Shown one piece after another: positions 25,501 to 28,500 of a DNA stretch of 64,000 nt; the stretch's first letter is position 1; each line of letters opens with the position of its first letter. This DNA is from Octopus vulgaris (taxonomy: Eukaryota), in contig OX597836.1 of the NCBI GenBank assembly GCA_951406725.2, positions 42,160,001 through 42,224,000 on the forward strand, given 5' to 3'. The notes under the pieces are model-generated. The model saw only the letters and a list, made by a program, of their open reading frames with translations. It was not told the origin of the DNA and did not search any database. The position numbers and the translations under genes are program-made.

Positions 25501-28500
25501 CTGACATCAGCAGAATTTGAACTCAGAATGTAAAGACGGACGAAAATCTGTTAAGTATTTTGCCTGGTACAGTAACGATTCTGCCAGCTTGCTCTTCTTT
25601 AGCTGACATATCGTAATAAAATTCCTCACGGAAGCAGCTACTTGAAGAATGAAGAACAGATACCAGCTCATCCTTCCATTAATCCTATGCCTCTAAACCA
25701 TTTTCTGCCCTCTGGACCACTTTGGTTCCTATTTTACTCAAAGAGATCTTCTTAACCATTCAATGTTTAAAAATACCCATTCTTTTATTTATTTTTTTAT
25801 TTTTTACATTTCAACCCTAAGGCTGTGACCATGCTGGGGCACCTGGTTATTGTATTAAAAACATTCTTAAAATATTGGGTCATCCCATAAATGAGATTTT
25901 TTCAGTTGCATGCGTTAAAAGTCGGAGGGGGGATGGGATAAACTACCTTCATCAACTTGCTTTATAGCAGGTAGTAATTTTACCATGTACTTATTCTTAG
26001 TGCAAGTTTTGAAGGCAACAATGCAACGAAAAGTGCAAGGAATATTAATACAGTATATGGGGTCATACAATAAGTGTAAGCCAGTGTCAATAGTGGTTCC
26101 TGAAATTACGAGCCGGAAACTACAACCTAGAAGATTGGCTTCATCTTGGAAGATCTGTAGAGCTCAACGAGGACAACCTGCAAACCCAGAGGAAGAAAAT
26201 CCCATCGTAACTGTTGAGGAACTAGCAGAGAATCTTGGGTTTGGTAATTCAACCATTCAACTTAAGTCTGTGTTAGAAGAAAAACGGCCATCTTTGGTTT
26301 CAAGACGGAAGTTGTACTTCCATTAGGATAATGCTTGGCTACATACGACGATGACATTTCCAAAGCTGGAGCAGTTTGAATGGGAAACGATGCCCCACCC
26401 AGCATATTCACCAGACATTGCTCCATCTGATTATCATTTATTCCACACTCTTCAAAATAATTTGGACAGGAAAAATATGAATTATGTAGACAAGGTGTTG
26501 CCCCAGCATGGCCGCGGCCTTCGGGCTAAAACATTTTTAAGGATTTAAGGTCCGAACCGTACTGGAAGAGTATTTTATTTATGGACAAATGAATTTTGGT
26601 AAAAGGCCCTTGCAAGTCTACCAGATAAATAATGGAAGAGCATTGTAGAAAATGAAGGAGGGTAACATTTAGATTAAAAAAGATTTTAATTATCTTAATT
26701 TTGAAAAAATAAAAGAAATATAAAAAAAACCACATTATTTATGGGATGATCCAATATTTTTGTATTTTAGAAGTATTACCAATCTATCAATCATCAATCA
26801 ATCAATCATCAATCCATCAATCGACCAATCAATCAATCCATCAATTAATCCACCAATCAATCCAGTAATCGATCAAATAATCAATTCATCATCAATCCAT
26901 CAATAAATATCCATCATCAATCCATCAATCTGTCCACCATCTATCTATCAGTCAATCTATCAATCAACAATGACAACATATATGATAATTAACCATACCT
27001 GAGGGTTTTCCAAATTGAGATAAACCATGTGTTCTAAAGCCAGAGAGGGTGATTCAGCCTCTGACGAACCGCTCAACAAACGGTCACTGTAACCTTCGAG
27101 CATGTCCTTGAAACAACTCTTGGCATTTTCGAATTCCTCTTTCAGCAGATAGCAGTGCGCAATCGCATGAATGACATTCATCTTTCCGGTGTAGTTTGGG
27201 TGTATCTGGTTGTAGATATCCAAAGCCTCATGAAAAAATGTCAGGCTGTAGGAGATTTCATGCCTGGAATATGATGGCCGTAGTGGTTCAATGGTAAGAT
27301 CGAGTCCAAAGTGGTAGTAGTGGTGGTGGTGATGGTGGTGATGGTGGTGGTGAAGATGGTGGTGGTGGTGGTGGTGGTGGAGGTGGTAGCAGTAATAGTA
27401 CAGGTGACAGTGAGAGGTGGTGATGGTGGTGATGATGATGGTGATAGTGGCAATGGTGATGGTGGTGGTGGTGATGGTGGTGATGATGGTAATTGTGGCA
27501 ATAGTAGTGGTGATGGAGATGCTGATGGTGGTGGTAGTGGTTGTAGTGATGGTGGTGGTGGTGGTGGTGGTAGCAGTAATAGTACAGGTGGCAGTTAGAG
27601 GTGGTGATGGTGGTGAAGGCGGCAGTGGTGGTGAAGATGTTAACAGTGATGGTGATGGTGGTGATGGTGGTGAAGGCGGCAGTGGTGGTGAAGATGGTAA
27701 CAGTGGTAGTGATGGAAATGGTGGTGGTTCTGGTAGTGGTGGTGGAGGTGGTGATTGTCATGACAGTGGTGGTGGCTATGGCAGTGGTGGTAATAGCAGT
27801 TATTCAAGAAACAGGGAGAGAGAGTGAGAGAAAATTAGGGAGAAAGTGTACAACAGGGGTCGCTACACCCCCCTCTGCCAGAGCCTTGTGGAACTTTAGG
27901 TGTTTTTGCTCAATAAACACACACAATGCCCAGTCTGGGAATTGAAACCATGATCCTCCGACTATGAGTCCGCTGCCCTAACCACTGGGCCATTGCACCC
28001 CCCACATATATATATATTATAACTTGGGGTATCTACGAGATACCGGCATGCTGAAAATAGCAGCCAGGATCTGACTCTAAAACCACCTTAAGTGTTCATA
28101 TAGCACAAGGAGAGAAGACAAAATGACAAAATAAAACTAGTAAAAAATTACTGGATAATTCCAGATCCCTGATTTCTAGAGTTAGATCCTGGCTGCTATT
28201 TTCAGCATGGTGGTATCTCGTAGAGACCCCAAGTTATAATTTTAATAATAATTATTACCTTTGAAGGTTTTTATTTCCATGCTGGCCACTTGATAAGATC
28301 GTTATTTTATTTAAATTAACAATCTTATCCTTATTTATTTATTTATATATATATATCCTCCCTTATTCCCCTTCCTTTCTTTCCCTCTCCATCCGTCTTC
28401 CCCCCCCCCTTCTACGTTTCTCTATCTCTCTCACTTCCAGCCCCCTCGTTCTGTCTCTTTCTTCTCCTCCCTCGTCCACCTTCTCTCTCTTTTCATCTGT

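Follow-up and report, generated by a model that had tools for sequence, protein, structure and literature searches.

A divergent TPR exon in a mosaic array of STAND-like NTPase genes of Octopus vulgaris

The gene array

The stretch of Octopus vulgaris DNA analysed here (64,000 nucleotides, C23:42160001-42224000, hereafter the window) is part of a 580-kb array of 16 STAND-like NTPase-TPR genes. A search of the 2.8-Gb genome with exon 9 of these genes gave 17 matches, 16 of which lie on contig C23 between 42.15 and 42.73 Mb, and from 600 kb extracted around the window 16 copies of a unit of ten exons and 858 codons were obtained, their exact number and some junctions being provisional. Copies g1 to g10 are on the minus strand and g11 to g16 on the plus strand; the copies A, B and C of the first-pass annotation are g1, g2 and g3. 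All 141 extracted introns have GT-AG ends. The features of the window are as follows:

6228-6384, 8269-9294 and 10259-10437, minus: exons 3, 2 and 1 of copy A (g1)
22232..22552, minus: exon 10 of copy B, the last coding exon, helical, with a Cys-rich end
24846..25876, minus: homogenised intron-9 block of copy B, 95.8% identical to 62242-63268 of C, in B not adjoining exon 9
25875..26754, unstranded: decayed mariner in intron 9, with inverted ends and a TA duplication
26907..26998, minus: intron-9 flank touching exon 9, 77% identical to C; its first 14 nt are identical and are followed by a GATT-type simple repeat
26999..27263, minus: exon 9 of copy B (g2), type I, aa 664-752; 265 nt with AG/GT edges
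27035..27118, minus: core of the exon-9 divergence (helix 708-723, loop 724-729, start of helix 730-746)
27264..27757, minus: 3' end of intron 8, 72% identical to C overall; the last 50 nt are 96% identical and the rest is ACC/CAT-type microsatellite
29032..30096, minus: homogenised 5' block of intron 8, 97.5% identical to C, whose counterpart falls outside the window
30097-30208, 30910-31053, 31472-31585, 33117-33226 and 33577-33724, minus: exons 8 to 4 of copy B, TPR superhelix
37928..38084, minus: exon 3 of copy B
39026..40051, minus: exon 2 of copy B, with the remaining NTPase domain, helical domain and winged helix (Walker B CIFDD, GLP motif)
41516..41696, minus: coding part of exon 1 of copy B, with Walker A GLPYVGKT and a 7-C run in the assembly
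54135..54455, minus: exon 10 of copy C
63493..63757, minus: exon 9 of copy C (g3), type II

Not all copies are intact. A common 2.86-kb deletion in g4 (around 42.275 Mb of C23) and g7 (around 42.368 Mb) removes exon 1 together with Walker A; the nine other exons of both are intact, and these copies may serve as conversion donors. One base is lost in g9 and g10 (exon 8 or exon 4), and g6 carries a compensated frame shift in exon 8. In g1, g2, g6 and g11 the length of a C-run in exon 1 is shifted, by assembly error or as a real variant: the run has 7 C in B (41669-41675) and 5 in A (10411-10420), g6 and g11, while the in-frame form has 6. The change shifts the frame after codon 8 (codon 8-9 in B), and an in-frame ATG is found at codon 13, upstream of Walker A. 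In g11 exon 10 occurs in two tandem versions (C23:42514770-42515645), so that alternative last exons are possible.

The introns hold several repetitive sequences. Two ORFs of 600 and 432 aa in intron 9 of C (56852-59631, minus) look by eye like parts of a reverse-transcriptase retroelement, and a 251-aa ORF in intron 3 of B (36313-37068, plus) resembles by eye a Helitron-type helicase fragment. Tandem 183-bp SINE-like units lie at 1653-5145, where they are 97-99% identical, and at 23955-24840.

The exon structure was compared with contigs of runs X3, X6 and X9, whose RNA status is a guess; none of the three is listed on record as RNA. The contigs follow exon 9 up to both of its edges and then pass into sequence of exon 8 or exon 10. 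Type I is present without any difference in run X3, which also contains type II, agreeing with g4/g12 at all 25 listed differences; run X9 contains type I and the g11 type (20 of 20 listed differences). The in-frame 6-C form of exon 1 is present in all three contigs guessed to be RNA that cover it, although any copy may be their source; run X2 has no sequence over this C-run.

The protein and its relatives

The octopus protein is a STAND-like NTPase-TPR protein without an N-terminal effector. Its NTPase exon matches uncharacterised proteins of Octopus vulgaris, O. sinensis, O. bimaculoides and Argonauta hians (13 of 1000 candidates), while Pfam returned nothing for exon 2 alone. The structure of the O. 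sinensis protein P0004, which carries exon 9 of type I, was predicted with AF2 from 45 sequences (6 octopod and 39 of the 150 listed) at pLDDT 87.5 and pTM 0.81. P0004 has Walker A GLPYVGKT and Walker B CIFDD, both placed after strands in the predicted model, a GxP motif (CGLPG at 201-205), and a helical domain and winged helix after the NTPase. Helical repeats extend from about 340 to 800 in the model, and Pfam TPR_12 scores 63.7 bits against a cut-off of 30.1. The top PDB match in Foldseek is 6mfv, a STAND with a TPR sensor (E 8.6e-11, probability 1.0), at 13% identity and with a whole-chain TM of only 0.28/0.36; further fold matches are SAMD9, CED-4, Apaf-1, plant NLRs and Avs3.

The octopus proteins do not qualify as NB-ARC proper. 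The PF00931 profile stays below its cut-off of 23.5, with 15.9-19 bits in three of the five proteins scanned and the other two unlisted. Measured against the sensor-1 hhhTT/SR and MHD motifs of NB-ARC proteins, the octopus protein lacks the sensor-1 Arg (IILILSGG) and has VQE at the place of MHD (FQVQELIR). The N-terminal effector domain of a canonical tripartite NLR is absent, since the NTPase begins at about residue 20; 11 of the 14 copies that have exon 1 carry a stop in frame, four codons upstream of the ATG, and contigs guessed to be RNA splice a short upstream exon onto this stop-containing leader. The role of a ligand-binding sensor, given to the TPR exon in the first-pass annotation, is inferred from domain content and by analogy with known STAND behaviour.

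Look-alikes in the Atlas are NTPase-TPR clusters. Relatives occur in the molluscs Haliotis, Patella, Pecten, Pinctada, Solemya, Batillaria and Argonauta, all of them uncharacterised; they share the domain order of the octopus family and give full-length or near-full-length profile matches (E to 1e-96), but differ in being only 17-29% identical and, in several cases, in having long C-terminal extensions. A distant octopus paralog, L017, lies on another contig (C26:35217157-35217402) and has 55% identity, across 88 aa, with P0016, an Argonauta protein of 1,677 aa. The C-terminal part of the octopus protein, about 45 aa encoded at 22232-22400, has a Cys pattern LCxxC...C...LCG which is largely conserved from Argonauta to Octopus and may form a metal-binding module; Pfam gave no match for it.

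Exon 9 between homogenised blocks

Exon 9 of B encodes a TPR helix B, then a full TPR and then the next helix A. Between B and C it differs at 46 of 265 nt and 27 of 88 aa, and exon 2, the NTPase exon, differs between A and B at 17 of 342 aa; these hand counts of the first-pass annotation were reproduced exactly. The exon had been set against a neighbouring intron of about 95% identity, and this comparison stands only in part. A block of 95.8% identity does exist, but it is not adjacent: it begins 1,123 nt from the exon in B, from which it is separated by an 880-bp mariner insertion. As just 4,696 bases of B's introns, out of 16,887, can be aligned to C with an identity of at least 90%, the 95% figure is drawn from the alignable part of the introns. 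The DNA that touches the exon, i.e., the first 92 nt of intron 9 and the microsatellite-rich last 494 nt of intron 8, is itself only 72-77% identical. The exon is nevertheless truly an island between alike blocks. Divergence peaks locally at 17% in exon 9, against 2.5-4% in the blocks on either side (intron 8 5' and intron 9) and in exon 8 (2/112 differences). The last 50 nt of intron 8 hold only 2 differences, and the final 29 nt of exon 9 with the following 14 intronic nt hold none.

The changes are clustered, as had been claimed, with 29 differences falling within 84 nt (exon positions 146-229), a concentration that 0 of 150 permutations match. At the protein level 8 changes lie in helix 708-723, 7 in helix 730-746, 5 in helix 667-684, 2 in helix 691-704 and 5 in loops. 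Synonymous changes, which had also been pointed out, are abundant (pS 0.19-0.23 vs pN 0.16-0.17), and the synonymous divergence of exon 9 exceeds that of the intron block (13/68 vs 37/1026, Fisher p=4e-6); the genealogy of exon 9 is therefore older than that of its neighbours. Four-fold sites differ between B and C at 4/94 in exon 2 and 4/19 in exon 9.

Mosaic copies and the age of the exon-9 types

The sixteen copies carry several versions of exon 9. Type I is found in g2, g5, g6, g7, g8, g9, g10 and g14, and is identical in g2, g6, g7 and g9; type II is found in g3, g4, g12 and g13; g1, g11, g15 and g16 have single types. Types I and II differ by 16.9% in exon 9, compared with 3.1-3.6% within types and 4.5-5.4% between types in the alignable blocks of introns 8 and 9. 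The g11 exon is type-I-like in its 5' half and type-II-like in its 3' half. Residues V730, V733 and L743, common to type II, g11, g1, g15 and g16, are replaced in type I.

Mosaic exon exchange between paralogs, which the first-pass annotation held to be at least as plausible as selection, is borne out by several lines of evidence. Exon 2, exons 3-8, exon 9 and exon 10 yield mutually conflicting trees, each being rejected in all of its cross tests (12 in total, AU p<=0.003). Incompatible sites are clustered in a PHI-type test overall and within exon 2, exons 3-8 and exon 9 (p<0.001, 0/1000), with a null result within exon 10 (669/1000 permutations), and GENECONV-type identical tracts go beyond all 300 permutations in 21 of 105 copy pairs. 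Copy C itself is composite: its NTPase exon is nearest to that of type-I g10 (8/1026 differences), its exon 6 equals that of g11, its exon 8 equals that of g4, g7 and g9, and its exon 9 is nearest to g13, while CDS 1875-1997, including all of exon 8, is common to C and the type-I copies g7 and g9. The copies g4 and g7 are of type II and type I, respectively, in exon 9 despite their common exon-1 deletion.

At the protein level exon 9 groups by type across species rather than by species. Proteins of O. sinensis match the exon-9 types of g14, g11, g1 and g15 at 97-100% aa (P0004, P0003 and P0181 match those of g14, g11 and g1 at 98-100%), and O. bimaculoides P0180 groups with type I at bootstrap 95. 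For the true orthologs, g15 and g16, identity to the counterparts in O. bimaculoides is 89-91%, whereas types I and II are only about 70% identical; as type I also groups with the O. bimaculoides protein, these protein-level comparisons indicate that the split of types I and II likely predates that of O. vulgaris and O. bimaculoides. At least four old exon-9 types persist in the array.

A mariner beside exon 9

The 880-bp element lies 245 nt into intron 9 in all eight type-I copies and in no other copy, and C has the empty site. It is a mariner remnant by its match to Mos1 transposase (E 7e-10 in a search of PDB sequences), although Pfam returned nothing for its 57-aa transposase remnant. Among type-I copies the element is 96-100% identical, whereas the closest sequences at other genomic sites, taken from the 40 candidates scored out of 6,316, reach 83-85% across some 480 nt and 75-77% across some 750 nt; the mariner is thus old, its age being close to that of the type split, and type I has spread recently. 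The divergence peak is consequently not free of insertions, with the mariner downstream in type-I copies and unshared intron-8 DNA upstream. Both sides of this situation are treated in PMC3924837, according to which selection can create a divergence peak under conversion, and transposon insertions and large indels end gene conversion.

Tests for selection

Diversifying selection on exon 9, one of the two explanations put forward at first, was not upheld: site, branch and MK-type tests are all null. Codon models were fitted with our own code rather than PAML, with F3x4 frequencies, scaled nucleotide trees and naive empirical Bayes, and the exon-9 site models rest on 12 distinct sequences of g1-g15, which limits their power. 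Under these models no positive selection was found in exon 9 (2dL 1.8 for M1a/M2a, 2.2 for M7/M8, 2.3 for M8a/M8; M0 omega 0.84), nor with the exon in four sub-segments (2dL 0.09). Branch tests on the type I and II stems gave omega 0.57-1.16, none significant (2dL <=0.37), the type-I stem (0.84-1.16) being no different from the background. In the MK-type count fixed N:S changes between types are 21:9 vs 26:8 within types (p=0.58). The proposed mapping of variable sites to a TPR groove also failed to single out a binding surface: B/C changes affect 4 of 12 groove-lining positions vs 23 of 76 elsewhere, and no enrichment by TPR helix register was seen (p=0.21), the groove being taken as positions 2, 5, 6, 9, 12 and 13 of the TPR.

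Over all TPR exons (4-10, g1-g14) M2a is favoured over M1a with 2dL 12.9, about 4% of sites having omega 4.7, and six sites exceed a posterior of 0.7 (491, 581, 611, 659, 769 and 825), 0 of 6 in exon 9. The signal falls to 7.5 with finer segments. When data were simulated under the null with a single hidden breakpoint in each segment, 2 of 24 runs gave 10.3 and 10.7 and 0 of 24 reached 12.9; the evidence for selection is thus weak and concerns a few TPR sites, all outside exon 9. Codons 491 (A/D/F/Y; exon 4, 33577-33724) and 659 (D/L/R/Y; exon 8, 30097-30208) are the most variable residues at groove position 9 and are better candidates for positive selection than exon 9. Only exon 3 and the end of exon 2 are strongly constrained (omega ~0.2). 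In a neutral coalescent of 14 copies, a crude null in which exons are treated as independent, the 2.1-fold excess of exon 9 has P=0.064, and such an excess in any of the 7 TPR exons has P=0.46.

How the peak may have arisen

We favour, with a probability of roughly 0.55, a mosaic, NLR-like family under gene conversion in which exon 9 is an insulated island of old divergence. The exons of B and C would descend from two old paralog lineages in an array of exon mosaics, where conversion made the NTPase exon, the remaining exons and long intron blocks uniform and rarely crossed exon 9. The pairable sequence around this exon would amount to only about 400 nt, bounded by the type-I mariner on one side and by 1-2 kb of unshared intron 8 on the other. 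From a divergence of about 15-20% onwards, short conversion events would hardly affect the exon, and it would move only as a block, via long tracts or unequal crossing over; such movement may recently have spread type I to eight copies and type II to four. The protein would probably act as a cytosolic sensor, in which, by analogy with other STAND proteins, the TPR arm may gate nucleotide exchange and oligomerisation.

Insulation alone does not suffice, as exons 3, 4 and 6 have equally short alignable flanks between B and C and differ by only 3-9%. Moreover, since exon 9 moves between copies with its mariner, a single type could have become fixed by drift; no fewer than four old types nevertheless remain, three of them matched in O. 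sinensis. A serious competitor, to which we give something like one chance in three, is the same mosaic history with selection keeping the exon-9 types apart and present, as at an opsin-exon-5-like peak; each type would be a TPR surface of its own, conversion across exon 9 would be disfavoured, and shuffling would, as in clusters of MHC or R genes, bring sensors into new combinations. The confinement of the peak to one exon with 96-97% blocks on both sides, the occurrence of exon-9 types in several species and of types I and II in contigs of one run guessed to be RNA, and the replacement in type I of V730, V733 and L743, kept by type II, g11, g1, g15 and g16, all speak in its favour, as do the TPR-wide M2a result, whose top sites 491 and 659 are at groove position 9, and the description of such a pattern in PMC3924837 (section 3.2). 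However, none of the six TPR-wide sites falls in exon 9, the signal drops with finer segments, recombining nulls come near it in 2 of 24 runs, the groove is not enriched, the type-I stem evolves like the background, the neutral coalescent yields the excess at the probabilities given above, and the mariner supplies a neutral barrier. A stronger version appears tentative and on the whole unlikely to us: an octopod NLR-like array whose NTPase engine is kept uniform by conversion, independently in Octopus and Argonauta, and in which selection retains ancient TPR exon types that recombination assembles into new sensor specificities, i.e., a combinatorial, effector-less repertoire for innate recognition in a cephalopod.

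Two other accounts of exon 9 carry little weight. The types and mosaics might be created by uncollapsed haplotypes or mis-polished copies, and the exon-1 homopolymer frameshifts in four copies and the identity of exon 9 in g2, g6, g7 and g9 would suit such an artefact. It is nevertheless improbable: sequence words of B exon 9 occur in at least 20 runs, which come from 9 studies and include one flagged as a possible source, sequences of type II and of the g11 type are present in independent contigs, and orthologous types exist in proteins of O. sinensis and O. bimaculoides. Hardly credible at all is a recent duplication of B and C, about 4% diverged, after which positive selection drove 27 aa changes into exon 9. 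The 27/88 aa against about 4% divergence of intron blocks might seem to invite it, but synonymous sites are as diverged as nonsynonymous ones, while this account needs dS near 0.04 and is refuted by the synonymous excess. The exon-9 changes predate the flank identity of B and C, because the same types recur in other copies and species.

Related systems and significance

The evolutionary pattern and the protein class are both of already known kinds. The NB-ARC-TPR genes of Ectocarpus (PMC3341825) resemble the octopus family in combining NTPase and TPR, in their many copies and in exon shuffling of the TPR region, with birth and death and a proposed role as immune sensors. There, each repeat is one exon, and diversifying selection is reported; octopus exons do not coincide with single repeats, exchange takes place between equivalent paralog exons, and omega>1 is not seen in exon 9. 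A parallel to the peak itself is exon 5 of the human red/green opsins (PMC3924837), which likewise stands far above intron blocks and whose types cross species. The opsins are two copies with known functional sites and with flanks homogenised right up to the exon, whereas the octopus array has 16 copies of a putative sensor, and a transposon and unshared intron DNA adjoin the exon, a situation that by the same paper can halt conversion neutrally. Podospora NLRs (PMC13449251) are STAND proteins with fast turnover, high dN/dS, trans-species variants and exchange of repeat regions between genes; they mostly have N-terminal cell-death effectors, and the repeats of the exchanging subgroup are highly conserved internally, neither of which applies to the octopus family. 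Among the structural matches (6mfv, CED-4/Apaf-1, SAMD9, plant NLRs, Avs3), the best, 6mfv, has the same order of NTPase, helical domain, winged helix and TPR superhelix. Our literature search found no paper on this octopus cluster, though supplements of genome papers may list the expansion; PMC11359984 deals with coral NB-ARC/TPR proteins and, in the part available, holds nothing on octopus STANDs.

Intracellular pattern receptors of cephalopods are poorly known, and the array is a concrete candidate family, with exon-level variants that are typeable in wild and farmed octopus and with the pattern of uniform NTPase and variable sensor of plant, fungal and algal NLR-like clusters. It also permits a direct test of selection against a transposon barrier as the keeper of a divergence peak. 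It is a cautionary case as well, in which the divergence of an exon beyond that of a nearby intron marked an older genealogy, not omega>1.

The homogenised NTPase exon

The counterpart of the divergent exon 9 is exon 2, which has been evened out even with the oldest paralogs. Between g2 and g16 four-fold sites differ at 4/82 in exon 2 and at 9/11 in exon 9, and only 96 and 23 nt of flank are alignable around exon 2. In Argonauta two proteins (P0012/P0013), which are gene models, are 99% identical in exon 2 and 28-56% identical elsewhere. When six proteins were compared, exon 2 grouped by genus, with the alternatives rejected (AU p ~1e-56), and exons 4-9 grouped by orthology, with grouping by genus rejected (p=0.0005); because of these opposite groupings the NTPase exon was likely evened out separately in Octopus and in Argonauta, the Argonauta part resting on gene models. 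The length of exon 2, which at 1,026 nt is the only long exon, is a sufficient neutral reason for its homogenisation; alternatively, selection for compatible NTPases may have acted. The homogenisation of the NTPase exon is arguably the most notable feature of the locus.
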